A stretch of DNA of 32,000 nt from a bacterium (GTDB lineage Bacteria > UBP7 > UBA6624 > JBBIMK01). The notes below the pieces were generated by a model that was not told the DNA's origin, made no database searches, and worked only from the letters and a program-made list of their open reading frames with translations. The stretch is from positions 1-32,000 of the forward strand of contig JBBIMK010000022.1 of NCBI GenBank assembly GCA_037444445.1, read 5' to 3'. The translations under genes were made by a program, and so were the position numbers. This document shows positions 8,431-22,771 of the stretch, piece by piece; position 1 is the first letter of the stretch; each line of letters begins with the position of its first letter.

Positions 8431-9450
8431 ATGAAGCCTATCTACTGGGACAATGGCATAGTGAAATTACTGGACCAAAGGCTTTTGCCTGATAAAGAAG
8501 TTTATGTGGAAGTCAAATCGGTGAAGGAGATGGCGAACGCACTGCGAGAGATGAGAATACGGGGTGCGCCCAATGTGGGTATTGCCGGGGCGTATGGCAT
8601 CGTTCTGGGCATCTGGAACTACTTCGGCTCGGTGGGTGACCTGCCGGAGGTGTACCACTCGTGGTGCGAGTGGCTTCAGAAAGCCCGCCCCACCGCCTAC
8701 AACCTTGCGCGAGCCCTCTCGCTTTTCCGCCCGTTGTTCCAGCCTGAAAACCTGAGTTCTACCTCTTTATCCGAATTAAAAGAGCAATCGTTATACATCG
8801 CTCACGGGTTGGTTCAAGCAGAGGAATCCGCCTGCGAACGCATTGGGACCCACGGAGAGCGTTTGATTCCACCGCGGGGTCGCATTCTCACCCTGTGCAA
8901 CACGGGGAGCCTGGCCGCTTACGGTATCGGAACTGCCCTCGGCATCATCCGGAAAGCCCATCAAGCCCGGAAAAATATCTTCGTCTGGGTGATGGAAACC
9001 CGCCCCTGGCTCCAGGGCGCCCGCCTCACCGCCTGGGAACTCCAGCAGGATAAAATCCCCTTCCGTCTGATTGTAGACTCCGTCGCCGGCCAACTGTTCA
9101 GGGAAAAGCAAGTGGATTTAGTGTTGGTGGGCGCCGACCGAATCGCCCATAACGGCGATACCGCTAACAAAATCGGCACTTACCCCCTGGCCATCCTCGC
9201 CCACTACCACGACATCCCCTTCTATGTGGCTGCGCCCAGAAGTACCTTTGAGACCACCCGCCACGACGGCTCCCACATCCCCATAGAAGAACGCCCGGAA
9301 GAGGAAGTCCTCACCTTCCACGGCATCGCCGTGGCACCCCCACAAACCAGAGCCTACAACCCCGTCTTTGACATCACCCCCGCCTACCTCATCACCGCCT
9401 TCATCACCGACACCGGCGTCTATTCTCCCTCCCAGATTCCCGCCCTCTAA
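8431..9450 (+). CDS. mtnA: S-methyl-5-thioribose-1-phosphate isomerase (eIF-2B alpha/beta/delta family)
   Basis: 339 aa. The N-terminal IYWDNGIVKLLDQRLLP, IRGAPNVGIAGAYG, CNTGSLA and VGADRIAHNGDTANKIGTY are all typical MtnA/IF-2B motifs. GGGGGAG RBS upstream. Confidence 0.85.
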   Translation: MKPIYWDNGIVKLLDQRLLPDKEVYVEVKSVKEMANALREMRIRGAPNVGIAGAYGIVLGIWNYFGSVGDLPEVYHSWCEWLQKARPTAYNLARALSLFRPLFQPENLSSTSLSELKEQSLYIAHGLVQAEESACERIGTHGERLIPPRGRILTLCNTGSLAAYGIGTALGIIRKAHQARKNIFVWVMETRPWLQGARLTAWELQQDKIPFRLIVDSVAGQLFREKQVDLVLVGADRIAHNGDTANKIGTYPLAILAHYHDIPFYVAAPRSTFETTRHDGSHIPIEERPEEEVLTFHGIAVAPPQTRAYNPVFDITPAYLITAFITDTGVYSPSQIPAL

Positions 9451-9493
9451 AATAACTGAGATTTTGGGGTCTGACCCCATTTCCTCAATTATT
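9451..9493. repeat. REP-like nested palindrome, arm type A/A
   Basis: AATAACTGAG-ATTTTGGGGTCTGACCCCATTTC-CTCAATTATT, starting directly after the mtnA stop codon. Confidence 0.85.
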
Positions 9494-9518
9494 TTATAAT
9501 TGAAGTAGTGAGATAGAG

Positions 9519-10463
9519 ATGCCTCGCCCACCTCGCCTGGAATTTGAGGGTGCCTTCTACCATATCTTTTCCAGAGGGAATAACCGCCAGCCCATCTTTT
9601 ACTCCGATGATGACCGCAACTTCTTCCTGAAGGTTCTGGAGGAATGCCGGGAGAAATTTCAGGTGAAAATGTTCGCCTTCTGCCTGTTAACCACTCATTT
9701 CCACCTGCTCCTGGAAACGGAAAAGCCGAACCTCTCCAAACTCATGCATGACTTCCTCACCCGGTATGCCGTCTACATCAAGAGGAAGTATGCTGCGGAA
9801 GGGCATATATTTCAGGGGCGATATCACGCTATTTTGTGCGACAAGGACGCATATTTTCTGGCATTGACCCGGTATATCCACTTGAATCCTTATCGTGCAG
9901 GGTTGTGCGATAGGGCATCTGACTACCCCTGGAGCAGTTTTTCCGCTTATTTTAACTTACCCTGCAAATATCCACTGAAAATTGACACCTCTCCTCTCCT
10001 TCAGGTAGCGGGAGGGAGAGAAGCCTATTTCCGTTTCCTCCAAGATGAAATCGAAGGGCTCACACCGATGTGGGAACCCAGGGTTCATCGTGGTTTTCTG
10101 GGCTCTGCTGAATTTATAAAAAAAGTGCTGGAAAGGGTGAAACGCAAGGGATGGGAAAAGATGAAACAGCGGGCTCTTCACGGGAGGTTCTGGCATCTGG
10201 AGAAAACCGCTCTGGAGCAACTGGTGAACGCAGTCAGCCAGTTTTACCAGATAAGTCCGGAAATGATTCGGGGGGCCTCTCGGGTCAGGAAAATAGCCAG
10301 AGCTCGGGGAGTTTTAGCCTATCTGGCGAGGCAAAAACTGGGGCTCAGTTTATCTTCTCTGGCGGAATATCTGGGTGGAGGGGAAGGGAAACTGTATTAC
10401 TGGATGAGCAAGGTTCAGAGAAATGAAAAATGGAAACAAGAGGTGGAGAGAATTCTAAAATAA
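9519..10463 (+). CDS. IS200-like HUH/Y1 transposase-family protein (RayT-like) with a C-terminal DnaA_C-like helix-turn-helix extension
   Basis: 314 aa. Visible motifs are YHIFSRGNNRQPIF, the HUH motif THFHLLLE, GHIFQGRY and the catalytic-Tyr region RYIHLNPYRAGL. The C-terminal segment RKIARARGVLAYLARQKLGLSLSSLAEYLG resembles the DnaA C-terminal DNA-binding domain. REP-like palindromes flank the gene on both sides. Confidence 0.85.
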   Translation: MPRPPRLEFEGAFYHIFSRGNNRQPIFYSDDDRNFFLKVLEECREKFQVKMFAFCLLTTHFHLLLETEKPNLSKLMHDFLTRYAVYIKRKYAAEGHIFQGRYHAILCDKDAYFLALTRYIHLNPYRAGLCDRASDYPWSSFSAYFNLPCKYPLKIDTSPLLQVAGGREAYFRFLQDEIEGLTPMWEPRVHRGFLGSAEFIKKVLERVKRKGWEKMKQRALHGRFWHLEKTALEQLVNAVSQFYQISPEMIRGASRVRKIARARGVLAYLARQKLGLSLSSLAEYLGGGEGKLYYWMSKVQRNEKWKQEVERILK

Positions 10464-10502
10464 CTGAAATTTTGGGGTCTGACCCCAAACTATGACATTA
10501 TT
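10459..10502. repeat. REP-like nested palindrome, arm type A/B (chimeric)
   Basis: AATAACTGAA-ATTTTGGGGTCTGACCCCAAAC-TATGACATTATT. It contains the TAA stop (10461-10463) of the first RayT-like gene. Confidence 0.85.
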
Positions 10503-10554
10503 TTGTAACTTTTTCCCCCGAGAGGAGTTGATATAGTATTGGAGGTGAAATAAA

Positions 10555-11430
10555 ATGACGGAGAAAATCCGCCGAATTTTTTTCTTGATGGTGGCTACGG
10601 TCTTCCTGGGGTTATGGGTGTTTTCCCTCCCACTACTGGCTGGAGAAGCGGGGAAAGGGGAACGGGAGAAGATGATCTGGTTTGGCTCCTATCTTCAGCC
10701 CGCCAACCCTGACATCGCTAAAGGATTGTTGGAGGAGATTCAGCCCACGCCAGAACAGGTGCAGAAAATTCAAGCCCTGTATGAGGAGATGGGAAAAAAT
10801 TTCCCACCCCTGGTGAAATCTTATCTGGACGGAATGAAGCAAATCGGAAAAACCATTTCCAAAAAGCCCCTCCAGGAAAAAGAACTGGACAATTCTTTGA
10901 AAGCATTCTTTGAGAACGAGCGAAAAATCTTAAAATCTGAAATTTCCTTCTGGGAATCCTTCCTGAAGATTTTAGGGGATGAGAAAGGAACTCATTTTAT
11001 GGGGGGCTACTTTCAGCAAGCGAAGGAGAAAGGGCTAAGCCCGGTGCCGTTCATCGGCGCCATTCTGGCGCCCTTGCCCGAGGACACAGGGTCTGCTCTT
11101 GCCTTCTTCATTGAACTCCAGCCGGAGCAGTTGAACCAACTTACCCCTCTTCTCCCCAAATATGTAGACTCCTTCACTGCTCTGATTCCCGAATATGTGA
11201 ACGGGCTGTCCTCGCTTATGCAAGAGTTCCAGAAGGGCTTCCCTTTCGCCTGGGATAAAATCCAGAAGAAAGCGGATGGACTTGTGGACACAGAAGCGAA
11301 ATTGGTTCATCATGAAGTGAGCCTCTGGAAGGATTTGAACGGAATCCTCACGGAGGACCAGGTAGCCATGTACTGGCCTGTATTCTTCTGGGAGAAGGTG
11401 AAGATGTTTCTTCCGGCGCCTCAAAAATAA
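10555..11430 (+). CDS. Secreted periplasmic protein with two Spy/CpxP-like (LTXXQ-type) helical repeats
   Basis: 291 aa with a signal peptide (FFLMVATVFLGLWVFSLPLLAGEA). LTXXQ-like motifs are present (PTPEQVQKI, LQPEQLNQL, LTEDQVAMY), and the two halves have similar helical layout. GGAGGTG RBS. The family assignment is tentative. Confidence 0.6.
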   Translation: MTEKIRRIFFLMVATVFLGLWVFSLPLLAGEAGKGEREKMIWFGSYLQPANPDIAKGLLEEIQPTPEQVQKIQALYEEMGKNFPPLVKSYLDGMKQIGKTISKKPLQEKELDNSLKAFFENERKILKSEISFWESFLKILGDEKGTHFMGGYFQQAKEKGLSPVPFIGAILAPLPEDTGSALAFFIELQPEQLNQLTPLLPKYVDSFTALIPEYVNGLSSLMQEFQKGFPFAWDKIQKKADGLVDTEAKLVHHEVSLWKDLNGILTEDQVAMYWPVFFWEKVKMFLPAPQK

Positions 11431-11468
11431 CTGAGATTTTGGGGTCTGACCCCATTTCCTCAGTTATT
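11426..11468. repeat. REP-like nested palindrome, arm type A/A with perfect arms
   Basis: AATAACTGAG-ATTTTGGGGTCTGACCCCATTTC-CTCAGTTATT. It fills the whole gap between two convergent genes and overlaps both stop codons. Confidence 0.9.
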
Positions 11469-12075
11469 ATAAGATGACGGTGGAACCGGAGAAAAGAGAG
11501 GCAAAGCGTTCCGCATCCTTCCGGTTTCCCACAATGTCACCCCAGTGCATAGGGACTACGGTAGCGGGATGAAAAGTATTGGCTGCCTTCGCCGCCTCCT
11601 CAGCGGTCATCACATAAACGCCGGAGACGGGCAAGAGGGCGATATCAATATTCTTCAGCCCATTCATTTCCGGGATGGCATCCGTATCGCCGGCGTGATA
11701 GATTCTCTTGCCACCCACCGTGACCACATAACCCACCCATTGATTTTTTTTCGGGTGAAAGTCCTTATTCAGGTTATAGGCGGGCACCGCTTCTACGGTG
11801 ACATCGCCCACGGTGAGAATGTCGCCGGGCTTCACAAACTTCAAACTTCCCGGCAACCCTTTGCAATCCGGAGTGGCAATGATGGCGGTCTGCTCCGTCG
11901 CCACCTTCTTCACATCCTCCACCGAGAAGTGGTCAAAATGAGAATGAGTAATGAGAATCAGGTCAGCCTTCTCCCCACTGGCGATTTTCCACGGGTCAAA
12001 ATAAATCACCTTCCCGCCCATCTTCAGGTGAAAGGAGGCATGCCCCAGCCATTTCAATCCTTCTATACCTGCCAT
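11467..12075 (-). CDS. MBL-fold metallo-hydrolase (UPF0173-like)
   Basis: 202 aa. Metallo-beta-lactamase motif ILITHSHFDHF (HxHxDH), with downstream HAGD and PMHW metal-ligand regions. Confidence 0.85.
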   Translation of the reverse strand: MAGIEGLKWLGHASFHLKMGGKVIYFDPWKIASGEKADLILITHSHFDHFSVEDVKKVATEQTAIIATPDCKGLPGSLKFVKPGDILTVGDVTVEAVPAYNLNKDFHPKKNQWVGYVVTVGGKRIYHAGDTDAIPEMNGLKNIDIALLPVSGVYVMTAEEAAKAANTFHPATVVPMHWGDIVGNRKDAERFASLFSGSTVIL

Positions 12076-12212
12076 TTTTCATCACCCTAATAAAGTATAC
12101 AGGTCGCCTGTGGAGGTGACAAGGGGAGCGACAGGTTCGCGCCGACTTCATCGGGACGAGGCTTACTCATCCCCTGCACCTCAGTTGTGAAACCGGATGC
12201 TGAACCCTGGAC

Positions 12213-12239
12213 TTGACTTGTTTTAAACTATGATATAAT
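12213..12239 (+). promoter_or_regulatory. Candidate sigma70-type promoter for the 1385-aa surface protein gene
   Basis: TTGACT (12213-12218), a 15-nt spacer, then TGATATAAT (an extended -10 form; TATAAT at 12234-12239), about 43 nt upstream of the GTG at 12282. Pattern match only. Confidence 0.35.
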
Positions 12240-12281
12240 ACTATTTTGATGCTCGTCATTCACCATACGGAGGTGGAAATT

Positions 12282-15200
12282 GTGAAAAAGGGGAGCAGAG
12301 TTTTTTTCATCGGTGGGCTGGTGATTCTGTCGGTTTTCACGGGGTGCTGGGGGAATAACGCGCCGTTTCCACAACCCCCTGCCCCTGTGGCGTTTCTATC
12401 GGCTCTACCCGGTAATGGGCAGGCTATCCTGGACTGGAATGATTCCCCCGACCCCCATTTTGCGGGATATAATCTCTATCGCGCTCTGATTTCGGGAGGT
12501 CCCTATACGAAACTCAACGCCACCCTGTTGTTAGGCTCTACTTACACCGATACTGGTTTGACCAACGGCACCACCTATTATTATGTGGTTCGTGTGATGA
12601 ATAAGCAGGGTATGGAGGGTCCGCCATCCGACCCAATCTCCGTGACGCCGAGGACGGATTTCACCCCTCCAGCCGCCCCTCAAGGGTTCACCGCCTTCGC
12701 CGGGGACAATTTCGTCCTCCTGAACTGGGCTCCCAACAACGAGCCCGACCTCTCCCATTACTTCCTTTACCGGAATACTTTCCCGGGCATTCCACAAACA
12801 GAAGCCTTCAGGATTGCTCGCATCAACCCCGCGAACTCTTACAACGACGCCTCCGTCACCAACGGCACCACCTACTGGTATTGCGTCAGCGCTGTGGACA
12901 CTTCTAATAACGAGAGCCCCTGCTCTATTGTTTTAATGGTAACCCCCGTATTAGACATCGTGGACCCGGTGGTGACGGTTCTTTCACCTAACGGCGGAGA
13001 GGTCATAGATAACGGCTCGCCCACCCTACTCCAGTGGACTTCTTCGGATAATATCGGTGTTTTGGCCCAGGAGATTCGTTTATCCACCGATGGCGGTAAT
13101 ACTTATCCCACCGTGATTGCCACGGGTTTGCCCGGCGCCCAGCAATCCTACACCTGGAATGTGCCGAGCAATTTAGCCAGCACCACCGCCCGGATAAAAG
13201 TCATCGCCACGGATGCTTCTGGAAATTCCGGTGAGGATGCTTCCGACGCCAACTTCACCATTCGGGACGGCGTTCCACCCTCTATACAGGTGAATTCCCC
13301 CAACGGGGATGAAACATTTAATGCAGGCTCCCCGATGACCATTCAATGGACTTCTTCCGATAATATCGGCGTAACCGAGCAGAATGTTTTCCGCTCCTCC
13401 GATGGCGGAGCAAACTGGCAGGCGGTGGAAGCCTGCCAGAACCTGCCCGGCAATGTTCAATCCTGCACTGTAACCCCGCCAGCAGATTTGAATAGCACCA
13501 CTATGCGGGTGAAAGTAGAAGCAAAAGACGCAGCCGGCAACTCCAGCGAGGACGCCTCGGATGGCAACTTCACCATCCAGGATGTCACGAACCCCCTTGT
13601 TCAGGTTACTTATCCCAACGGGGGTGAATCCTTCAATAACAATCAGCAGGTGGACATCACCTGGACCTCCAGCGACCCGAACCAGAGCAGTGGCTGGGGG
13701 CCCGCTGCGGTTGCAACCCAGACCGTGGCTTACTCCACGGATAATGGACAAACCTGGACTGACATAGGGGACTGTATCGGGCTTCCTGACACCGTTTTCA
13801 ACTGCCCCTGGACTGTTCCCAATGATGTGGCAACGACCCAGGCACTTGTGCGGGTCACCGTCACCGACACCGCCAATAATACCACTTCCGACTCTTCCGA
13901 TGGCACTTTCACCATCAATGACATCATTAACCCCACCGTCGCTGTGACTTCGCCCAACGGGGGTGAAACATTTAATGCAGGCTCCCCGATGACCATTCAA
14001 TGGACTTCTTCCGATAATATCGGCGTAACCGAGCAGAATGTTTTCCGCTCCTCCGATGGCGGAGCAAACTGGCAGGCGGTGGAAGCCTGCCAGAACCTGC
14101 CCGGCAATGTTCAATCCTGCACTGTAACCCCGCCAGCAGATTTGAATAGCACCACTATGCGGGTGAAAGTAGAAGCAAAAGACGCAGCCGGCAACTCCAG
14201 CGAGGACGCCTCGGATGGCAACTTCACCATCCAGGATGTCACGAACCCCCTTGTTCAGGTTACTTATCCCAACGGGGGTGAATCCTTCAATAACAATCAG
14301 CAGGTGGACATCACCTGGACCTCCAGCGACCCGAACCAGAGCAGTGGCTGGGGGCCCGCTGCGGTTGCAACCCAGACCGTGGCTTACTCCACGGATAATG
14401 GACAAACCTGGACTGACATAGGGGACTGTATCGGGCTTCCTGACACCGTTTTCAACTGCCCCTGGACTGTTCCCAATGATGTGGCAACGACCCAGGCACT
14501 TGTGCGGGTCACCGTCACCGACACCGCAGGCTTGTCATCCTCCGACACCTCTGACGCTACTTTCACCATCGTGGATTCCATCCCCCCCAGTGTGACGGTG
14601 AATGCCCCCAACGGCGGTGAAAATGTTCCCGGCGGCGCTACTTATAACATCCAGTGGACCTCCAGCGATAACATCAGCATCACCGACCAGGATGCCTATG
14701 TTTCCACCGATTCCGGCGCCAACTGGGTGGCTATTTCTGAATGCCAGAATGTGGTGGGTCAGCAGTGCGCCTGGAATACACCCGCCATCAACAACACCAC
14801 CTCCCGGGTTCGGGTTTGCGTCAATGATGGCGTCAACCCTGAAGTCTGCGACGATTCTGATGCGGATTTTTCTATCCTCACTGACACGACTCCACCGGAA
14901 ACCACGATTACCTCCGGACCTGCCGAAGGCTCCTTCTCCAATCAAAATACCGCCACCTTTGAATTTACCGGTAATGACCCACCACCCAATCCTTCTGGTA
15001 TCAACCGTCTTGAGTGCAACCTGGACAACGCTGGCTGGAATACCTGCACCTCACCTTTTACTACGCCGGCCCTCACGGATGGACTCCATAACTTCCAGGT
15101 CCGGGCTGTGGATAACCTGGGCAACATAGATGCAACCCCGGATTTCAGAAACTGGACCGTGGATACTACACCTCCCGACCTCACCATCACCGCTCCCACT

Positions 15201-16436
15201 GCGAACGGCCATGTTGCCGGTGGAACAGGCTATCAAATCCAATGGACCTCCTCCGATGCAGTCTCTGGCCTGGCAGGCCACTCCAGCCTCCAGTATTCCA
15301 CGGACAGCGGAACGAACTGGACCGACATCCCCGAGGCGGAGTGTTCGGGCTACACCGCTCCCACCGCCCAGGATTGCACCTGGAATGTGCCGGCGAATCT
15401 CTGGACGCCGACCGCCACCGCAAAACTTCGCCTCACTGCTACAGATAATGCAGGAAACACCCGAACCTCTGAATCTGAACTCTTCTTATTTGACGATGTG
15501 AGCCCACCCACACCACCCACTGTGATTGCTCCCAACGGTGGAGAAATGGTGGATGCCCCCTCCACCTATACCATTGAGTGGACCTCGCCCACGGATAATG
15601 TGGGAATCCAGAACTGCGACATCCTGCTATCCACCGATGGCGGAGCCACCTACCCCACCACCATCGCCGCCGGCATCCCCTGCTCCACCTACGCCTGGAG
15701 TGTGAACCCTGACCTCTTCACCGGCAAAGCCCGTATCCGCGTGGTCGCCCACGACCTCGCTGGTAATACCAGCGATGACGATTCTGACGCCAACTTCATT
15801 ATCGTTTTCTACGAACGCTGGGAAAGTGAAGCAGACCCCACTGCATTTGGAGAACAACACCCCACAACCTTCCTAATGCGTTGGTGGCAATTCCTTTTTG
15901 GCGGTGATGCTAACTGTCCAGGACCTCCAACCAATCCTTATAGATGGTATTTTGGAGATGACAATGGCGTCTTTGGTGCCCCACAGGGTAACCACTCTCC
16001 GAACTGGTTCCGCTGGGATGTGTGTAACAACGACCCGAATTACTATTATCCACCGGGTGATCAACTTGGCCTCGTTGCCGGGCCATTTGACTTCACCGAT
16101 GCCACAGCGGGAACTTTGAACCACAACTCCCAGTGGGCTTTTGACAACGAGGATATAGGCAGATTGCTCATCAGTGCTCCGCTGGCTTCCCCTACATCGG
16201 CGTGTAACACTGCTGCCACTTATTATTTGCTGGACCACATCACTGGCACAAGCCCGAACTTCGGAACGGCCTTTGAATCTATTTCTATTGACCTTTCCAC
16301 CATCACCACTCCGGAGGGACCCGTTCTCGGCACCACCCGATGTATCGGTTTTATCACCTTTGATATAGATGGTGATGGAGACGGAGGAATCGGGTTCGGC
16401 TGGTTTATTGACGACATCCGTGTAACCAAAAACTGA
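12282..16436 (+). CDS. Giant modular cell-surface lipoprotein: 2 FN3-like modules, 8 Asp-box-containing Ig-like modules, 1 FxF..C.LD..C.SP Ig-like module and an orphan C-terminal domain of about 200 aa
   Basis: The ORF is open from 12246 (TTG), but GGAGG at 12269-12273 followed by GTG 12282 gives the better start. Lipobox LSVFTG|C. FN3-like segments are present (GYNLYR...TNGTTYYYVV, HYFLYRN...TNGTTYWYCV). Modules of about 105 aa repeat with the pattern SPNGGE..W[TS]SSDNIG..S[ST]DGG..W..(Asp-box)..D..GN...D.SD..F.I. The C-terminal W/D/N-rich domain matches no family I know. Confidence 0.85.
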   Translation: MKKGSRVFFIGGLVILSVFTGCWGNNAPFPQPPAPVAFLSALPGNGQAILDWNDSPDPHFAGYNLYRALISGGPYTKLNATLLLGSTYTDTGLTNGTTYYYVVRVMNKQGMEGPPSDPISVTPRTDFTPPAAPQGFTAFAGDNFVLLNWAPNNEPDLSHYFLYRNTFPGIPQTEAFRIARINPANSYNDASVTNGTTYWYCVSAVDTSNNESPCSIVLMVTPVLDIVDPVVTVLSPNGGEVIDNGSPTLLQWTSSDNIGVLAQEIRLSTDGGNTYPTVIATGLPGAQQSYTWNVPSNLASTTARIKVIATDASGNSGEDASDANFTIRDGVPPSIQVNSPNGDETFNAGSPMTIQWTSSDNIGVTEQNVFRSSDGGANWQAVEACQNLPGNVQSCTVTPPADLNSTTMRVKVEAKDAAGNSSEDASDGNFTIQDVTNPLVQVTYPNGGESFNNNQQVDITWTSSDPNQSSGWGPAAVATQTVAYSTDNGQTWTDIGDCIGLPDTVFNCPWTVPNDVATTQALVRVTVTDTANNTTSDSSDGTFTINDIINPTVAVTSPNGGETFNAGSPMTIQWTSSDNIGVTEQNVFRSSDGGANWQAVEACQNLPGNVQSCTVTPPADLNSTTMRVKVEAKDAAGNSSEDASDGNFTIQDVTNPLVQVTYPNGGESFNNNQQVDITWTSSDPNQSSGWGPAAVATQTVAYSTDNGQTWTDIGDCIGLPDTVFNCPWTVPNDVATTQALVRVTVTDTAGLSSSDTSDATFTIVDSIPPSVTVNAPNGGENVPGGATYNIQWTSSDNISITDQDAYVSTDSGANWVAISECQNVVGQQCAWNTPAINNTTSRVRVCVNDGVNPEVCDDSDADFSILTDTTPPETTITSGPAEGSFSNQNTATFEFTGNDPPPNPSGINRLECNLDNAGWNTCTSPFTTPALTDGLHNFQVRAVDNLGNIDATPDFRNWTVDTTPPDLTITAPTANGHVAGGTGYQIQWTSSDAVSGLAGHSSLQYSTDSGTNWTDIPEAECSGYTAPTAQDCTWNVPANLWTPTATAKLRLTATDNAGNTRTSESELFLFDDVSPPTPPTVIAPNGGEMVDAPSTYTIEWTSPTDNVGIQNCDILLSTDGGATYPTTIAAGIPCSTYAWSVNPDLFTGKARIRVVAHDLAGNTSDDDSDANFIIVFYERWESEADPTAFGEQHPTTFLMRWWQFLFGGDANCPGPPTNPYRWYFGDDNGVFGAPQGNHSPNWFRWDVCNNDPNYYYPPGDQLGLVAGPFDFTDATAGTLNHNSQWAFDNEDIGRLLISAPLASPTSACNTAATYYLLDHITGTSPNFGTAFESISIDLSTITTPEGPVLGTTRCIGFITFDIDGDGDGGIGFGWFIDDIRVTKN
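13310..13873 (+). repeat. Intragenic direct repeat, copy 1 (564 bp, identical to copy 2)
   Basis: I compared 13310-13873 base by base with 13964-14527 and found no mismatch. The period is 654 bp (218 codons, two Ig-like modules). Confidence 0.9.
13964..14527 (+). repeat. Intragenic direct repeat, copy 2 (564 bp, identical to copy 1)
   Basis: See copy 1. Identity breaks at 13309/13963 on the left and 13874/14528 on the right. Confidence 0.9.
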
Positions 16437-16442
16437 ACATTC

Positions 16443-16463
16443 TCCCGCTGTTTTTTAGCGGGA
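16443..16463 (+). terminator. Small hairpin just after the stop of the 1385-aa gene
   Basis: TCCCGCT-GTTTTTT-AGCGGGA forms a 7-bp stem. The T-run lies in the loop rather than after the stem, so a terminator function is doubtful. The REP copy at 16473 follows 10 nt later. Confidence 0.2.
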
Positions 16464-16472
16464 CAGGTTGCC

Positions 16473-16510
16473 CTGAGATTTTGGGGTCAGACCCCAAAAT
16501 CTCAGTTATT
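16473..16510. repeat. REP-like element: perfect 33-nt palindrome with central A
   Basis: CTGAGATTTTGGGGTC-A-GACCCCAAAATCTCAG followed by TTATT. The left AATAA arm is missing. Located downstream of the 1385-aa surface protein gene. Confidence 0.85.
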
Positions 16511-16632
16511 TTTGCCTGTTGCCACTGAAAGCCTTTCGGGTGTAAACATTCTATCCTCCTTCTACCTCCTTTCCATTCTTTTTCTACTTCATTTTGCTCT
16601 ACGCTTTTGTAGTAGAAGGACGGGTGGTAGAA

Positions 16633-17976
16633 ATGGGAGATAAAGAGGGAAAAGGGAATGGAGAAAAGGGAAAGGGGAATGGAGGAGGAATACTCGCTTT
16701 ATGGATGTTTCCACTGTGGGCGCTGGTTTCTTGCAGCGGTCCTACTGGCATCTCGCCTGGTCCTTTTCCCAGTTATGTAGAGGGGTATGTGCTGAGGGGT
16801 GGGAGTATTTCACCCTCCGGTGAAGGCTCGCCCTCTTCGGCGAACTCCTGCGGTTCTCCTGCAGGCTATGAGCCTATAGCGGGAGCGAGCGTGAGCCTTC
16901 TGGCTTCCTCTTACTTCACCACTACGAATTCTTCTGGATATTTTCGGCTGTATGCTCCACAGGGCAGTGAGACCCTTTCCGTATCCGGGACGGGCTATAA
17001 AACCACCACTTATCCCGTAAATATACCGGAAACGGGGCCAGCAGGGTTCGGCACTCAGAATTGCATTTCTCTGCCGAGAGATGATACGACAGCGTTTGCA
17101 ACTTCAATTTCACAGGTGGATACGAGTGTGCCTTCCGCGATTGGAGTGTTTTCTGCTGTGGCGGATGCCACGGGAAAGCAGGTTCTGGGTATGCCTGCAA
17201 ACTCATTCTCCGTCCGCATAGGGGATGAGAACGGGCTCAATTTCCAGCCCATTCCTATCCTCTCCGTTCAGCAACTTACAGGCTCGGGAGAAGCGTATGA
17301 GCCATTTTCCGCCGTCCTCGTTCTGGATGCCAGCGATTCTATGAATAACCCTGCAGGGGGTGGCAAGAGAAAAATTGACCTGGCGCGGGAGGCGGCAGAG
17401 TATTTCGTCCAGCATAAAGCGAGTGGCGATGAGGTTGCCCTGATTATCTTTGACCACCGCATCACCTTCCATCAGGACTTCACCACGAATTCAGCGGTCC
17501 TTCTGCAGGCTTTGAAATCGTATGACCCCGACGACCCGGGATATAAATGGGGAGGGAGCACCGCTTATTACGATGCCGCCTACGAGGGAACCCAGCGCCT
17601 GAACCCTCGCTCAACACGGAGAAAATATAATATCACCCTGACAGATGGCCTGGACAATTCCAGTGTTCACACCTATATGGAAGTGATACTGACCGCTCAC
17701 AATGCGGGCATACCGGTTTATACCGTGGGCGTGGGACCGGATGCGGATAAGCAGATTTTGAAGAACATCGCCGACGGCACGGGCGGGCAGTTCACTGAAG
17801 TGAACGATGCCACGAAAATCCCCGATGCCTTCGCCGGCATCCTCACCCAGGCGCAGTATACCTACCGGCTTGTGCTGAATACTTCAGGACTGTCCACCGG
17901 TCAGCACACCATAGAACTGGCGGTGAACTTCGCCGGGATAACCGGCACCGCCTACCAGATTTTCACCCAGCCCTGA
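16633..17976 (+). CDS. von Willebrand factor A (vWA) domain lipoprotein with an N-terminal carboxypeptidase-regulatory-like beta-sandwich
   Basis: The ORF is open from 16594 (TTG). ATG 16633 gives a Gly/Lys-rich n-region, the hydrophobic ILALWMFPLWALVS and a lipobox Cys. The MIDAS motif VLVLDASDSMN plus downstream TAYYDA and LTDGLDNS support vWA. GASVSLL...TTNSSGYFRL resembles a CarboxypepD_reg domain. Confidence 0.8.
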   Translation: MGDKEGKGNGEKGKGNGGGILALWMFPLWALVSCSGPTGISPGPFPSYVEGYVLRGGSISPSGEGSPSSANSCGSPAGYEPIAGASVSLLASSYFTTTNSSGYFRLYAPQGSETLSVSGTGYKTTTYPVNIPETGPAGFGTQNCISLPRDDTTAFATSISQVDTSVPSAIGVFSAVADATGKQVLGMPANSFSVRIGDENGLNFQPIPILSVQQLTGSGEAYEPFSAVLVLDASDSMNNPAGGGKRKIDLAREAAEYFVQHKASGDEVALIIFDHRITFHQDFTTNSAVLLQALKSYDPDDPGYKWGGSTAYYDAAYEGTQRLNPRSTRRKYNITLTDGLDNSSVHTYMEVILTAHNAGIPVYTVGVGPDADKQILKNIADGTGGQFTEVNDATKIPDAFAGILTQAQYTYRLVLNTSGLSTGQHTIELAVNFAGITGTAYQIFTQP

Positions 17977-18020
17977 AATAACTGAACTTTTGGGGTCTGA
18001 CCCCAAAAGGTGACATTATT
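17977..18020. repeat. REP-like nested palindrome, arm type A/B (chimeric)
   Basis: AATAACTGAAC-TTTTGGGGTCTGACCCCAAAAG-GTGACATTATT, starting directly after the vWA gene's TGA. Confidence 0.85.
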
Positions 18021-18043
18021 TCGCGATATAATTTAGAATCAGG

Positions 18044-18985
18044 ATGCCGCGTTCACTTCGCATAGAATTTGAGGGGGCCTTTTATCACATTTACTCCCGA
18101 GGGAATAACCGTCAACCCATCTTTCGTGATGATAATGACTTCCTCTATTTCTTAAAAAATCTGGAAAAGCAGAGGGAAAAATTTCGGGTCCGGTTATATG
18201 CCTTTTCCCTTTTGAACACTCACTTCCATTTCCTACTGGAAACGGAGAAGGCGAATCTATCCCGAATGATGCACGATTTTTTGACAAAATATGCGGTCTA
18301 TTTCAAGAAAAAGTATGCGGCGGAAGGGCATATATTTCAGGGGCGTTATCAAGCCATTCTGTGCGACCGGGATTCCTATTTACTGGCGCTGAGCCGATAT
18401 ATTCACTTAAACCCCTATCACGCAGGTCTGTGCGATGACCCTCTCCAGTATCCCTGGAGCAGTCTACCCGTCTACCTGGGTATGCCCTGCAAGTATTCAT
18501 TAAAGGTGGAAACAGCGCTGATTTTGCAGTTGATGGGAGGGGAGGCTCATTATCTAAAATATATTCGGGATGAAATCCAGGGGGCGAGCAAGCCATGGTG
18601 TCCAGCGCCCCGTTATTCTTTTTTAGGGTCGGGTGAATTCGTGAAAGGAGTTCTGGAGAAGTTAAAGGAGCGGAGGTGGGAAGCCCGTCATCTGGATAGT
18701 CTTCAGAAAAAGTTTGTGCTGGAGACAGGAGAGACCCCATTTAGAAATCTGGCCCGCCAAGTTTGCGAATTTTATCATATACCTGAGGAAAGCCTTTTCA
18801 GTAAGAGCCGAAAGAGAAAGGTGGTAAAGGCTCGCGGGGTTCTGGCTCTTCTATCAAAGGAAAGACTGGGGTTAAAACTCTCGGGTTTGAGTGAGAAATT
18901 GGGAATGGGGAAAAGAACGCTGCTCCGGTGTATGGAGAGGATAAGCAAGGATGAAAGGATAAAGAAGGATATGGAGGTGATTTAA
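18044..18985 (+). CDS. IS200-like HUH/Y1 transposase-family protein (RayT-like) with a DnaA_C-like C-terminal extension; paralogue of 9519-10463
   Basis: 313 aa, colinear with the first copy over its whole length. Shared motifs are YHIYSRGNNRQPIF, HUH THFHFLLE, GHIFQGRY and RYIHLNPYHAGL, with the C-terminal RKVVKARGVLALLSKERLGLKLSGLSEKLG. REP-like palindromes flank the gene on both sides. Confidence 0.85.
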   Translation: MPRSLRIEFEGAFYHIYSRGNNRQPIFRDDNDFLYFLKNLEKQREKFRVRLYAFSLLNTHFHFLLETEKANLSRMMHDFLTKYAVYFKKKYAAEGHIFQGRYQAILCDRDSYLLALSRYIHLNPYHAGLCDDPLQYPWSSLPVYLGMPCKYSLKVETALILQLMGGEAHYLKYIRDEIQGASKPWCPAPRYSFLGSGEFVKGVLEKLKERRWEARHLDSLQKKFVLETGETPFRNLARQVCEFYHIPEESLFSKSRKRKVVKARGVLALLSKERLGLKLSGLSEKLGMGKRTLLRCMERISKDERIKKDMEVI

Positions 18986-18986
18986 G

Positions 18987-19031
18987 AATAATGTCCATGT
19001 TTGGGGTCTGACCCCAAAAGGTGACATTATT
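18987..19031. repeat. REP-like nested palindrome, arm type B/B
   Basis: AATAATGTCCATG-TTTGGGGTCTGACCCCAAAAG-GTGACATTATT, starting 1 nt after the second RayT-like gene's TAA and ending 10 nt before the next ATG. Confidence 0.85.
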
Positions 19032-19040
19032 TGTTTCAGG

Positions 19041-19904
19041 ATGAAAAAAATAGGTTTTATCGGGCTGGGGAAGATGGGGAAGCCGATGGCACTGAACCTT
19101 TATCAAGCAGGTTTTCCTCTGATGGTGTATAACCGCACGCGGGCGAAGACGAAAGAGTTTGAGGAGAAAGGGGTGCCGGTGGCAGGCTCCATAAGGGAGT
19201 TATCCTCCTCCTCTCAAGTTATCATCACGATGTTGACCGATGAGCCCACGGTGGAGGAGGTGATACGCGGGGAGGGGGGAGTTTTATCCGGTGCATTACC
19301 TGAAACGATTCTGATAGATATGACAACTGTCTCTCCATCTTTCTCACGAAAGATGCATGAATATCTGCGTCTGAAGGGCTTGAAATTTCTGGATGCGCCG
19401 GTTTTAGGGAGTGTTCGCCCGGCGGAGGAAGGAACCCTCATTATTATGGTGGGCGGGGAAAAGGAAGTGTATGAGGAATGCCGGCCCATTTTTGAGGCTC
19501 TGGGGAAGGATATTTTCTACCTGGGGGGAAGCGGAATGGGCACTTCTATGAAATTAGTTGCCAACCTTCTATTGGGCGTTTTTATGAGTGGGACCGCTGA
19601 GGCATTCCATCTGGCGAAAAAGGAGGGGCTATCGCCCGAGCAAGTGGCTCAGGTTCTTTCCGCCTCTGTAATTATCTCTCCATCGCTGAAAGCAAAGTTT
19701 CCTCTTTTCTTGAAAGACCGGTATGAGCCTCATTTCTCACTACGGCACATGAGGAAGGACCTTCGGCTGATGCTGGATACTGCTGACGAATTAAATATAG
19801 AACTGCCTCTGGTGAAGGAGGCTCATCATCTTTATTCCGAGGCGGTGGAGGAAGGGTACGGCGACCTGGATTATTCCGCGGTGGTCAAGTATCTGGCGAG
19901 GTAA
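19041..19904 (+). CDS. NAD(P)-dependent beta-hydroxyacid dehydrogenase (3-hydroxyisobutyrate / 2-hydroxy-3-oxopropionate reductase family)
   Basis: 287 aa. Rossmann motif IGFIGLGKMGKPMALNL, plus DAPVLGS, LIIMVGG and GSGMGTSMKLVANLLLG, which are typical of the HIBADH family. Confidence 0.85.
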   Translation: MKKIGFIGLGKMGKPMALNLYQAGFPLMVYNRTRAKTKEFEEKGVPVAGSIRELSSSSQVIITMLTDEPTVEEVIRGEGGVLSGALPETILIDMTTVSPSFSRKMHEYLRLKGLKFLDAPVLGSVRPAEEGTLIIMVGGEKEVYEECRPIFEALGKDIFYLGGSGMGTSMKLVANLLLGVFMSGTAEAFHLAKKEGLSPEQVAQVLSASVIISPSLKAKFPLFLKDRYEPHFSLRHMRKDLRLMLDTADELNIELPLVKEAHHLYSEAVEEGYGDLDYSAVVKYLAR

Positions 19905-19949
19905 ATAATGTCCATATTTGGGGTCAGGCACCAAAAGGTGGCACATATT
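19904..19949. repeat. Degenerate REP-like element (type B left arm), partly recruited as coding sequence
   Basis: AATAATGTCCATA-TTTGGGGTCAGGCACCAAAAG-GTGGCACATATT. The core differs by 2 substitutions from the central-A form. It overlaps the last base of the dehydrogenase stop and the last eight or so codons plus stop of the minus-strand hydrolase. Confidence 0.65.
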
Positions 19950-20727
19950 TCTCGAGGAACAGGCGCAGTCGTTCCCGGAACACCCCTTCGGACATAAAGA
20001 GAAAGGTCCCATAAGCAGGCGTCTTGCACTCAGGCACCACCCGCTCCACGGCACCGGAAGGGAAAGCAGAGATAAACTTTTCCACCTCCACAAATCCCGG
20101 GGCATCCTTGCACGCTCCCACCCACACGGGCACCCCTTTCCACCGGGAAACATTCTTCGCCATCAGTCCCTCCTCCCACCGAAACAGCATCGTCCTCGGC
20201 GTGGCAAACGCCAGCGCTCCTGGCTTCCACACCCCGGGTAAATACGCCACCACCTGCGCCGATGTCCAGCCAGACGCCACAATCCCCACCCGTCTCAAAT
20301 CCAGATAATCCAGTCCTTTCAGTCCCTGCCACATCGCCTCAAAATCTTTCCCGATTCCTTCCAGCACCTCCCGGGGAAGATTCGCCGCCCGCTGAAGTTT
20401 CACCTCCTGATGCACCGTCTCCCCATGCCCGCGAAGGTCAAAAACCACCACCGCATACCCCGCCTTCGTCAGCACCCCCGGTAAATGCTCCGTGCCAATG
20501 CTCCAGTCCACCTTACTCCCCCCATAATCGTGAACCAGAAAAATCACCGCAAACGGAGGCTTCACACGGTCCGTCTCATCCCCCTTCAATGTGGGAAGAT
20601 AAATCCGATAAGACAGGGTGAACCCATCCACCGTTTTGATGACCGGAAGTGCAGAGCCCTTTTTCTCCCCTTCTGCACCTGAAAAAGCCATTAGAAGAAC
20701 GAGTGCCATCACTGCCCGCTTCATCAT
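19924..20727 (-). CDS. Secreted alpha/beta-hydrolase-fold protein (dienelactone hydrolase/peptidase S9-like); nucleophile elbow not obvious
   Basis: The ORF track starts this gene at 20787, overlapping the upstream gene. ATG 20727 follows GGTGGTGAAGAGG and yields a signal peptide (MMKRAVMALVLLMAFSGAEG). VIFLVHDYGG and VVVFDLRGHGET fit an alpha/beta hydrolase. The expected GxSxG position reads IVASGWTSA. The last eight or so codons and the stop lie inside a degenerate REP copy. Confidence 0.7.
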   Translation of the reverse strand: MMKRAVMALVLLMAFSGAEGEKKGSALPVIKTVDGFTLSYRIYLPTLKGDETDRVKPPFAVIFLVHDYGGSKVDWSIGTEHLPGVLTKAGYAVVVFDLRGHGETVHQEVKLQRAANLPREVLEGIGKDFEAMWQGLKGLDYLDLRRVGIVASGWTSAQVVAYLPGVWKPGALAFATPRTMLFRWEEGLMAKNVSRWKGVPVWVGACKDAPGFVEVEKFISAFPSGAVERVVPECKTPAYGTFLFMSEGVFRERLRLFLEKYVPPFGA

Positions 20728-20743
20728 CCTCTTCACCACCCTT

Positions 20744-22771
20744 TTATGGCACAAACTCCGGGTCCACAAGTGACAACCCGATGTCATAATCCCCCGTCAT
20801 CGTTCTGCTCCTGTCCCGATAGGCTACCAGAATTTCATCCACCGCTGTCCCCGCTCTCGGCATATGCTGCTCCCCGCGCTCGCTGGTAATCACAAATTCG
20901 CCCAGCACCCCACCGGCGGGATTCCACATCGCACCAAAAATGTCAAACCCGGAATCTGCCACATTCCGCGTATCCATCCAGGCAACAAGGAATTTCTCCG
21001 TCTGCGGGTGATACGCCACCGAGGTGAGGATTTTTGTGGATGGATAGGTGCTGATGGGAAAAACTGGCTCCACCGGCGGGGAGCCATCCGGGGGAACCAG
21101 ACGGGCGTAAATGTCGTAATTCACCCCGGAAATCCGATGAAACGCCACAAGGAATCCGTAGGGAGATGGGGAGATGGAGGGTGCGCCAGCACTCTCCTCA
21201 AAATCCGCCACCAGAAATGAACCCCCAACTCCTCGTCCATCGCTGTCCAGCGCTAAGCCATATATGTCCGTCCCCGTAACCCCTGCCTGCTCATACACCA
21301 TCAGGGCAGTTCGCGTGAAAGAGTTTACGGAAACCACCGGCTGGGAGGACGTTCCAGGACCGGAAACCAGCTGCCACGGGGGGGAAGCGGATAGGGCGGG
21401 ACCGGTGAGCACGGAGGAGTATATCCTCCCCCCATCCACCCACACCGCAATCACCCGGTCCTCAGAACTCCCCATCCGAACCCGACTGCTGGCATTCAAA
21501 CCCACACTCACCTCAATCATTCCACCTTCCACATACGGTGGACCGTCCTTCTTCACCGCCACGGCATAAATCCCGCTATTCCCGGAACCATCCACAGACT
21601 CAAATGCCACCACAAATCGTCCCCAAACTCCCGGATACGCCACGGAAGGGCGGAGGAAATTCCTCCCCCCATCCTGTGCAATCGGAAACATCTCCCCCTG
21701 CGGGATTCCATCCCGGCTGACCCATTGTCCCCAGACTTCCCATCCTGTGCCCGCACTGCGTTGAAAAACCACAAGGAACCGGTCTTCACCAAACCGCACC
21801 GCAGGCTCCCGTTCATCCTCCGTTGAAATGACCCCGTATCTTCCGGGGCGCTCCGCCCGCTCTTCACTCCCACCACTCTCATTCCCCGCCACATCCACTG
21901 CGGTCACCACCACATAATACAATTTCCCATTCTCCAGGTTCCGAACCCGGACGGGAAAAGAAGGAGGAGCGGGAAGCAGGGATGCGTTCCATCGGCAATT
22001 GCAGGTCGCCGGGTCAATCCCTGCCTGCCCGGAGATATACACATTGTATCCCGCTACTCCATTTGCATCGGTTGACCCACTCCATTGAAGGAGAAGGCGC
22101 CGGTCTGCCGGGGTTAAACTCACCGTGGGCGCCCCTGGTGGCGTCTGGTCCACCACAAACACAAACTCCGCAGGCGTCGCATCCTCATTCCCCAATCCAT
22201 CCCGCGCCCACACCCGGAATGTGTGCTCCCCTTCTGTTAGATTGCCCATCGTCAACGGGCTTTCACAGGGCGTAACCTCCTGCCCATTGTGCTCACAGCG
22301 AAAGGTCGCTCCCTGCTCCGGAGAGCGAAACTGAAAAATCACCTGCGCCTGATGGATAAAACAAGGCTGAACAAGATTGCACGGTCCTGCCACGAGTTCC
22401 GTCTCCGGTCCTGTCCGGTCCACCACAAACACAAACTCCGCAGGCGTCGCATCCCTCTGTCCACCTCGCACCGCGCGAACACGAAAGGTATGCTGTCCCT
22501 CACCCAGACCGGATATGCTCAGGGAATACGGGCTGGTGCAGGGGGAAAACTCCCCACCATCCAGCGCGCACTCAAACTGTGCCCCGGAAGGCGTGGAGGT
22601 GAAAGAAATCACCACCTGCCCATCCCGGAAAACCGTCTGATTCGGCTCCCAACCGGTAATCTGTGTGTCCGGAACCACCGGCGGCGCGGAACCCCCACCT
22701 CCCCCACAACCCGTAAACACCACTCCCGCAAATACCACAACTCCAATAACCTTCCCTATCTTCATCCCCAT
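20744..22771 (-). CDS. Surface lipoprotein: two FxF..C.LDG..C.SP-type Ig-like modules, one FN3-like module and a seven-repeat beta-propeller-like C-terminal domain
   Basis: 675 aa with lipobox VVFTG|CGGGGG. Two modules carry F.C.LDG.EFSPC.SP...L.EG.HTFRV.A....G..DATPAEFVFVVD. An FN3-like segment follows (GYNVYISG...GKLYYVVVTAVDVAGNES). After that come seven repeats of about 50-55 aa with the pattern P.VA....FLV.[WF]....DI[YF]G.....DG...G..F.I. Confidence 0.8.
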   Translation of the reverse strand: MGMKIGKVIGVVVFAGVVFTGCGGGGGSAPPVVPDTQITGWEPNQTVFRDGQVVISFTSTPSGAQFECALDGGEFSPCTSPYSLSISGLGEGQHTFRVRAVRGGQRDATPAEFVFVVDRTGPETELVAGPCNLVQPCFIHQAQVIFQFRSPEQGATFRCEHNGQEVTPCESPLTMGNLTEGEHTFRVWARDGLGNEDATPAEFVFVVDQTPPGAPTVSLTPADRRLLLQWSGSTDANGVAGYNVYISGQAGIDPATCNCRWNASLLPAPPSFPVRVRNLENGKLYYVVVTAVDVAGNESGGSEERAERPGRYGVISTEDEREPAVRFGEDRFLVVFQRSAGTGWEVWGQWVSRDGIPQGEMFPIAQDGGRNFLRPSVAYPGVWGRFVVAFESVDGSGNSGIYAVAVKKDGPPYVEGGMIEVSVGLNASSRVRMGSSEDRVIAVWVDGGRIYSSVLTGPALSASPPWQLVSGPGTSSQPVVSVNSFTRTALMVYEQAGVTGTDIYGLALDSDGRGVGGSFLVADFEESAGAPSISPSPYGFLVAFHRISGVNYDIYARLVPPDGSPPVEPVFPISTYPSTKILTSVAYHPQTEKFLVAWMDTRNVADSGFDIFGAMWNPAGGVLGEFVITSERGEQHMPRAGTAVDEILVAYRDRSRTMTGDYDIGLSLVDPEFVP

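Follow-up and report, generated by a model that had tools for sequence, protein, structure and literature searches.

A 32,000-nt stretch of bacterial DNA (contig JBBIMK010000022.1 of assembly GCA_037444445.1; hereafter the window) carries, between 9.45 and 19.95 kb, two diverged genes encoding proteins related to the repetitive extragenic palindrome (REP)-associated tyrosine transposases (RAYTs), termed RAYT-A and RAYT-B, together with seven copies of a nested palindromic repeat (P1 to P7) situated at gene ends throughout the interval (Table 1). RAYT-like genes flanked by terminal inverted repeats that share the motif GGGGWSAS have been described under the names TIRYT and TIRtron (Di Nocera et al., 2013; PMC3733652), and the locus is a clear new example of these rather than a new kind of system. 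Judging from their sequence, the end-repeats of the window TIRtron appear to have become full REP-like palindromes.

RAYT-A and RAYT-B are colinear and share 55% identity at the protein level and 72% at the DNA level over the first 300 nt, and are therefore not recent transposition copies. Both match the Pfam domain Y1_Tnp over residues 13-121 (5.7e-13 and 1.7e-10) and the domain Bac_DnaA_C over residues ~233-290 (44.6 and 35.8 bits, respectively, against a cutoff of 31.5). The latter corresponds to a C-terminal helix-turn-helix (HTH) resembling DnaA that is present in both proteins and had gone unnoticed in the first-pass annotation, which had described the two genes as colinear HUH/Y1 paralogues. 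That description holds: H60 and H62 of the HUH motif (H60-F61-H62), as well as Y119, H121, and N123 of the RYIHLNP segment, are invariant across an alignment of 51 homologues. Nor do the proteins score as ordinary IS200 TnpA, since the IS200/IS605 TnpA model NF033573 gives RAYT-A only 13.6 bits (cutoff 55) and does not match RAYT-B. The NCBIfam model for REP-associated tyrosine transposases, NF047646 (cutoff 80), scores RAYT-A at 83.5 bits and RAYT-B at 65.5 bits. Compared with the Protein Data Bank (PDB), a family profile from the 51-homologue alignment finds DnaA domain IV (1.9e-12) and the TnpA-REP structure 4ER8 (1.4e-5), the second of which was missed by a single-sequence phmmer search and recovered by the profile and the predicted fold. 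The AlphaFold2 model (mean predicted local distance difference test score of 92) has as its top Foldseek match 4ER8, E. coli TnpA-REP with a REP hairpin (E 2.5e-7, target template modelling (TM) score 0.70), followed by the IS608, ISDra2, and IS200 transposases, and its C-terminal domain matches the DNA-binding domain of DnaA on a DnaA box (3PVP, 1J1V; TM 0.74-0.75). The family comprises 16,583 cluster representatives at E <= 1e-10 in an exhaustive search, and most of the best 150 representatives are ~310-330 aa long and align over nearly their full length; the nearest homologues of the window proteins are only 49-55% identical.

The repeats were defined with the 21-mer TTTTGGGGTCWGACCCCAAAA, for which eight matches with up to three mismatches occur in the 32 kb, against 0.00 expected from 100 dinucleotide-preserving shuffles. 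At seven of these matches the sequence continues outwards into arms containing AATAA, forming nested palindromes of ~47 nt with the core GGGGTC-W-GACCCC, and these make up the cluster of seven copies that had been noticed earlier. Folded as single-stranded DNA (ssDNA), six of the palindromes reach -9.6 to -16.1 kcal/mol (z = -4.65 to -6.5), and the degenerate copy P7 folds more weakly (z = -2.6). The eighth match, at 2311-2331, had been taken for a relic of the element, a proposal that was not accepted: it has three core mismatches, lacks arms, folds no better than shuffled sequence (z = -0.55), and probably represents a small, unrelated hairpin lying between genes that converge. All seven palindromes are intergenic and associated with gene 3' ends, as had been stated. 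On the map of open reading frames (ORFs), six of them touch or overlap a stop codon, usually a TAA within the AATAA arm, and P4 lies 37 nt past one. A palindrome is present in every intergenic gap of the 9.45-19.95 kb interval (seven of eight) except 12076-12245, a divergent promoter region without a gene 3' end, and each RAYT gene is bracketed by two copies (P1/P2 and P5/P6), again as first described. Arm-specific searches of the window yielded no hidden further copies, and no Rfam family matches anywhere in it.

The palindromes are built from four half-elements, which read from the outside to the centre as A1 (AAAATAACTGAGATTTT-GGGGTC), A2 (AAAATAAYTGAGGAAAT-GGGGTC), B1 (AATAATGTCCATRTTT-GGGGTC), and B2 (AATAATGTCACCTTTT-GGGGTC); most copies assembled from them are imperfect, contrary to the earlier impression that several were nearly perfect. 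RAYT-A has A2...A1 as its gene-proximal halves and RAYT-B has B2...B1, so that each paralogue is bracketed by its own arm type, in keeping with the published rule of one repeat family per tnpA-REP gene (PMC6006769). The A1/A2 and B1/B2 hairpins contain a 4x4 internal loop at the identical place, and these irregular hairpins recall those required by IS608 TnpA and E. coli TnpA-REP. All six asymmetric copies (six of six) lie in one orientation on the + strand. Upstream, the repeat starts 56-57 nt before both RAYT start codons, and on the downstream side it reaches to 26-35 nt beyond the stops. From its two halves, P7 looks like a hybrid between type B and type C, the latter being the repeat of a probable third paralogue described below, and this hybrid together with the two A1/B2 copies suggests that half-elements have been exchanged at or near the palindrome centre. 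With regard to the promoter-like site upstream of RAYT-B (18010-18039), the sequence TGACATTATT is also present upstream of the distant homologue in locus L069 (L numbers denote retrieved loci).

Table 1. Features of the RAYT-A/RAYT-B locus and of the related contig L041. Positions refer to the window unless a locus is named; P1 to P7 are palindromes.
Feature	Position	Strand	Composition	Folding	Context
RAYT-A	9519-10463	+	314 aa; Y1 HUH domain aa 13-121; DnaA-domain-IV-like HTH aa ~233-287		
RAYT-B	18044-18985	+	313 aa; two-domain architecture as in RAYT-A		
P1	9449-9495, centre 9472		A1/A2, 4x4 internal loop	-10.6 kcal/mol, z -4.65	overlaps mtnA stop (8431-9450); centre 47 nt upstream of RAYT-A ATG
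P2	10457-10503, centre 10480		heterotypic A1/B2-like	z -5.0	overlaps RAYT-A stop
P3	11424-11470, centre 11447		A1/A2, 94% identical to P1		between convergent genes 10555-11430(+) and 11467-12075(-), overlapping both stops
P4	16473-16512, centre 16489		A1/A1, perfect 15-bp stem, then TTATTTTT; left outer arm missing	-16.1 kcal/mol, z -6.5	37 nt past stop of 1396-aa gene; called terminator-like
P5	17975-18021, centre 17998		heterotypic A1/B2		overlaps VWA gene stop; centre 46 nt upstream of RAYT-B ATG
P6	18986-19032, centre 19009		B1/B2, 4x4 internal loop		immediately 3' of RAYT-B stop
P7	19903-19949, centre 19926		degenerate; left half B1 with core GGGGTC, right half core GGCACC plus AAAAGGTGG, like type-C repeats of L041		between convergent genes 19041-19904(+) and 19924-20787(-)
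Promoter-like site (consensus match only)	9471-9500	+	CTGACC, 18-nt spacer, TATAAT		overlaps right half of P1
Promoter-like site (consensus match only)	18010-18039	+	GTGACA, 18-nt spacer, TAGAAT		-35 in B2 arm of P5
Type-C copies	L041:2804-4651, at 2827, 3812, 4628				
1396-aa gene	12246-16436		Ig-like/BNR/fn3 repeat protein		
Small hairpin	16441-16459		CCCGCTGTTTTTTAGCGGG		between stop of 1396-aa gene and P4
2952-aa ORF	22879-31737	-	highly repetitive		

The association between gene and repeat extends to the relatives of the window proteins. One strand of every window core reads GGGGTCAG, which fits GGGGWSAS, and a motif resembling GGGGTCAG lies 31-89 nt upstream of the start codon in all 12 tabulated gene loci, which comprise both window genes and 10 relatives found through their protein sequences only. 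In nine of the 12, the best inverted match between the flanks bears the motif at its outer end and lies downstream near the stop codon, and another four RAYT genes, found by motif-based scans, adjoin GGGGTCWGACCCC palindromes. On the contigs of the closest relatives, a palindrome of the same design precedes the ATG by 27-39 nt with a changed core, GGTGCC-W-GGCACC in L040 and L041 and TGGGTC-A-GACCCA in L042. The pairs GGGGTC/GACCCC and GGTGCC/GGCACC are two compensatory double substitutions apart. Across 14 copies from four lineages, 15 of the 22 stem pairs have changed on both sides, and the covariation score of 0.392 compares with 0.188 +/- 0.025 for shuffled copies (0/500 reaching 0.392) and with at most 0.163 for controls in which the partner was slid by 1-3 columns. 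The self-complementarity of the repeat is conserved by double substitutions and is under selection. As a separate observation, two tandem palindromes stand upstream of the RAYT gene in L042.

The locus is probably a chromosomal TIRtron/REPtron of the TIRYT type whose repeats are processed in trans, and it would belong to RAYT group 1 and TnpA-Y1 subclass 2.1, an assignment made from domain architecture and motif. The first-pass annotation had likewise proposed a REPtron-like system, which is supported by the Y1_Tnp matches, the NF047646 score of RAYT-A, and the best fold match to TnpA-REP with its REP hairpin. The mechanism suggested here is modelled on the IS200/IS605 and TnpA-REP paradigm. 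Each of the two diverged paralogues would be a nuclease-ligase of the HUH/Y1 type acting on ssDNA and fused to an HTH like that of DnaA domain IV, its gene bracketed by presumably cognate hairpin repeats of which solo copies sit at neighbouring gene ends. The repeat may fold into a hairpin when the DNA becomes single-stranded, for example at a replication fork, whereupon the Y1 domain would recognize the conserved GGGGTC-W-GACCCC tip region, and Y119 together with the metal bound by the HUH motif would cut and rejoin the DNA there. In this way repeats could be copied or exchanged in trans, and the enzyme genes would stay put. The variable outer arms may set paralogue or lineage specificity, possibly through binding of the HTH to duplex DNA, and at gene ends each copy might in addition stop transcription from both directions as an intrinsic terminator. 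A putative promoter overlaps the copy located just upstream of each enzyme gene, an arrangement that would permit autoregulation.

Several observations weigh against this interpretation. All copies seen lie within 10.5 kb of the 32-kb window, though dispersal is the hallmark of REPs, and RAYT-B, at 65.5 bits, falls below the NF047646 cutoff of 80. A duplex site to which a symmetric dimer binds would be expected to show self-complementarity just as much, and G-T and A-C mismatches on the sense strand are equally frequent (18 vs 18), which gives no pointer to a hairpin formed by one strand. Inspection of the sequences shows that the arms do not resemble a DnaA box, and the DnaA-like recognition helix of the window clade has lost the R-D-P residues conserved in the family. 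The DnaA box was rejected as a target of the HTH, the arms AATAACTGAG and AATAATGTCAC being unlike TTATNCACA, a point also made by Quentin et al. (PMC6006769). When the recognition helices of five protein-repeat pairs were compared with the sequences of their arms, all helices differed and no rule emerged.

An alternative in which the TIRtrons are autonomous, IS-like elements, each gene with its proximal palindrome halves mobilizing itself in the manner of IS200/IS605, is unlikely, though it can draw on several features of the family. It would treat the two genes as two insertions and the solo palindromes as joined ends, footprints, or preferred targets. Homologues with 34-39% identity, fetched by protein identity (L063, L065, L067, L069, and L072-L074), have plain terminal inverted repeats rather than full palindromes, located 51-89 nt upstream of the start codon on one side and at the stop codon or shortly beyond it on the other, with GGGGTCAG, AGGGTCAG, GGGGTCAA, or GGTGTCAG at the outer tips. 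These plain repeats speak for it, as do the cognate pairs of inner halves around the window genes (A2...A1 and B2...B1), and group-1 RAYTs duplicate at a higher rate than any other RAYT group and are found now and then on plasmids (PMC5581495). Against self-mobilization stand the divergence of the two genes (55% in protein, 72% in the first 300 nt of DNA), the excess of solo copies over genes, the absence of tnpB, and the failure of the IS200 model (13.6 bits against 55). The neighbourhood of the gene is moreover kept between L040 (8352-15818) and L042 (76-6942), which share the order UbiA, small ORF, NusB, RAYT, and giant fn3 protein; the shared order is evidence for stable inheritance of the RAYT gene at one site in their clade, and this synteny suggests that it has been kept vertically.

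It is distinctly improbable that the palindromes are mainly host elements, whether two-way terminators or binding sites for a host protein, that were spread or homogenized by recombination or gene conversion and into which the enzyme genes inserted, as some insertion sequences target REPs. Such a role would agree with the position of every copy at a gene 3' end and with the runs of T that flank the stems on both sides, T-rich sequence following the stem in both directions in all copies, two of which were called terminator-like. The wobble mismatches without strand bias point the same way, as do the many genomes that have a single copy of the 21-mer and lack an enzyme gene closer than 8 kb to it; the exact 21-mer was found at 39 loci in species-representative genomes, all from other organisms. 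Terminators, however, need no conserved 13-nt core common to several phyla, and the motif precedes the ATG by 31-89 nt in 12/12 loci, 10 of them retrieved by protein alone. The compensatory changes of the core also track the enzyme lineage, and the arm types track the paralogues.

Least of all can the locus be expected to be a cassette array, in which the palindromes would be back-to-back end-repeats overlapping by the 13-nt core, the enclosed genes would be excised, shuffled, or captured through integron-like HUH chemistry, and the A1/B2 (twice) and B1/type-C hybrids would be scars of joining at the palindrome centre: the occupation of 7/8 gaps, mostly delimiting single co-oriented genes, the cognate end pairs in four of the six inter-palindrome units, the exchange of half-elements at the centre seen in these hybrids, and a similarly dense pattern in L044 (nine copies in 13 kb) all suit it, but this support is limited to geometry and half-exchange, the proteins encoded between the palindromes are metabolic or surface proteins of an ordinary kind, the region shows no compositional island, and the REPs of known systems pile up at gene ends without moving genes.

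The TIRtron/REPtron interpretation also places the locus among systems already described. The TIRYT repeats reported by Di Nocera et al. include some that are wholly self-complementary, moderately repeated, and clustered, and several TIRYT genes with different repeats may occur in one genome (PMC3733652). Quentin et al. (2018) assigned 20/26 TIRYT proteins to TnpA-Y1 subclass 2.1, of which subgroup 2.1.2 bears a Bac_DnaA_C-like tail, and equated the subclass with RAYT group 1 of Bertels et al. (2017; PMC5581495); they found no REP-like sequences near subclass 2.1 genes in automatic or manual searches (PMC6006769), a statement that the window locus contradicts. The locus shares with the TIRtrons a RAYT-like Y1 core with a C-terminal HTH related to Bac_DnaA_C, GGGGWSAS inverted repeats (GGGGTCAG in the window) placed tens of nt before the ATG and at the stop, and the presence in one genome of several diverged copies of the gene, every copy having repeats of its own. 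It differs in the form of the repeat, which is an entire nested palindrome of ~47 nt with a 4x4 loop rather than a simple terminal inverted repeat, and in that this repeat occupies almost every gene end over 10 kb.

With the canonical REPtrons of E. coli, Pseudomonas, and Stenotrophomonas (4ER8; PMC8266576), the locus has in common the HUH/Y1 fold, palindromes that stand on either side of the gene and turn up again at the ends of other genes, hairpins that are imperfect and internally irregular, and a gene apparently kept vertically. In contrast to these systems, no GTAG or GTGG is found at the foot of any of the seven window copies, the enzyme is about twice as long owing to the HTH domain, and the repeats are single units rather than REPIN doublets. 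The IS200/IS605 elements (IS608, ISDra2) likewise share the catalytic fold and presumably the ssDNA chemistry, as well as a coding sequence bordered by hairpins, whereas the window genes leave the IS200 model unmatched (13.6 vs 55), lack tnpB and distinct left and right ends, and are paralogues of 55% identity, unlike near-identical IS copies. Integrons, whose promoterless cassettes are bounded by attC sites, differ from the locus in their tyrosine recombinase of the integrase family, which was not found among the ORFs scanned. Few groups of domesticated HUH transposases are larger than the group-1 RAYTs, and a literature search found no paper with biochemistry on subclass 2.1 or group-1 RAYTs. 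The locus offers a compact natural experiment in this respect, with two, probably three, paralogues, one hairpin architecture, variant arms and cores, and hybrid copies: since the paralogues differ in arms or in a compensated core, it becomes testable which domain reads the core and which the arms.

The probable third paralogue, with its own repeat type, is the 327-aa protein P0002 encoded on contig L041, assembled by Logan from sequencing run SRR11582170, which is 55% identical to both window proteins. Its gene is bracketed by the type-C palindromes, GGTGCC-W-GGCACC with arms AATAATGAC..., and a solo copy lies nearby. The same run yielded a 1,024-bp contig (L075) that is 98% identical to window positions 9471-10487 and ends within both flanking palindromes, as assemblies do at repeats, which gives an indirect hint of many repeat copies in the genome. 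The tetranucleotide profile of L041 correlates with that of the window at r = 0.89, compared with 0.81 between the two halves of the window, and L041 presumably derives from the same genome as the window.

Beyond the close relatives, palindromes that have the core GGGGTCWGACCCC but markedly different arms occur repeatedly in many further lineages and phyla, and they appear, from sequence comparison, to form a widespread repeat family separate from the REPs tagged with GTAG or CGTC. Among these sets, the Clostridia metagenome-assembled genome (MAG) RGIG7681 (JAFZEA01) has 28 cores in 78 kb, spread over ten 8-kb loci on seven contigs, L023 (an Acidimicrobiales contig) has seven cores in 3.5 kb, and in L044 nine cores in 13 kb surround a RAYT of 250 aa. 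This distribution bears on the earlier proposal of a REP/RAYT pair specific to the lineage, of which the part concerning the arms stands, as they are lineage-specific, and the part concerning the core does not, GGGGWSAS being family-wide and present in many phyla. Nor is it unusual, as had been suggested, for two diverged paralogues to share one core, because the core recurs across the family and across phyla and each paralogue has its own inner arm type. A scan of the JGI metagenomes for arm plus core returned 20 loci, of which blastn matched none to the window, an exact look-up of RAYT-A turned up no record, and a literature search found no paper quoting the 13-mer core.

Some further features of these distant sets may be recorded. 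The RGIG7681 loci (L001, L007, L009, L015, L027, L030, and L036-L039) carry the identical 21-mer with AAATTTAAC arms, often as doublets with the second core ~37 nt away, and one copy lies 60 nt from the start of a RAYT of 254 aa whose C-terminal HTH is short. Locally dense GGGGTCWGACCCC palindromes with unrelated arms also occur in L018 and L020 (a Ferrovum MAG) and in L058 and L062. At L044:6355-7892, L060:122-679, and L062:8433-9080, the core GGGGTCTGA supplies an in-frame TGA stop, so that in those lineages RAYTs and adjacent ORFs end in ...GV* inside the palindrome; the stops in the window differ, being located in the AATAA arm and not in the core.

The genes surrounding the repeats encode MtnA (TIGR00512, 390 bits), a 291-aa protein of unknown function, an MBL-fold hydrolase, a 1396-aa Ig/BNR repeat protein, a VWA protein, a 3-hydroxyisobutyrate-type NAD-binding dehydrogenase, and an alpha/beta hydrolase; the order of VWA, RAYT-B, and NAD-binding dehydrogenase between 16.47 and 19.95 kb is as first annotated. 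No tnpB was found among the neighbours (mtnA, the unknown 291-aa protein, VWA, and dehydrogenase genes) and no integrase among the ORFs scanned, the 2952-aa ORF lying outside that scan, and the only recombinase-like genes seen are those of the two Y1 HUH proteins. A genomic island was considered and rejected, there being no discontinuity in GC content or skew around 9.4-20 kb. MtnA has an 84%-identical homologue (P0272) on a 21-kb JGI contig, which is the best comparator for empty versus filled repeat sites; its named matches, from Bipolaricaulota, Omnitrophica, and others, are only ~50% identical, and the source thus appears to be an uncultured lineage that branches deeply.

Two large repetitive genes lie in the window. 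The 2952-aa ORF on the reverse strand contains periodic repeats of ~290-350 nt that run past its listed start codon to 31988, towards the end of the window, and it may be longer than listed. The gene for the 1396-aa protein is followed, before P4, by a separate small hairpin that may be its original terminator. Within this gene, which shows a periodicity of 315/339 nt, an 87-nt internal repeat is 100% identical between 13551-13637 and 14205-14291, which suggests a recent internal duplication.

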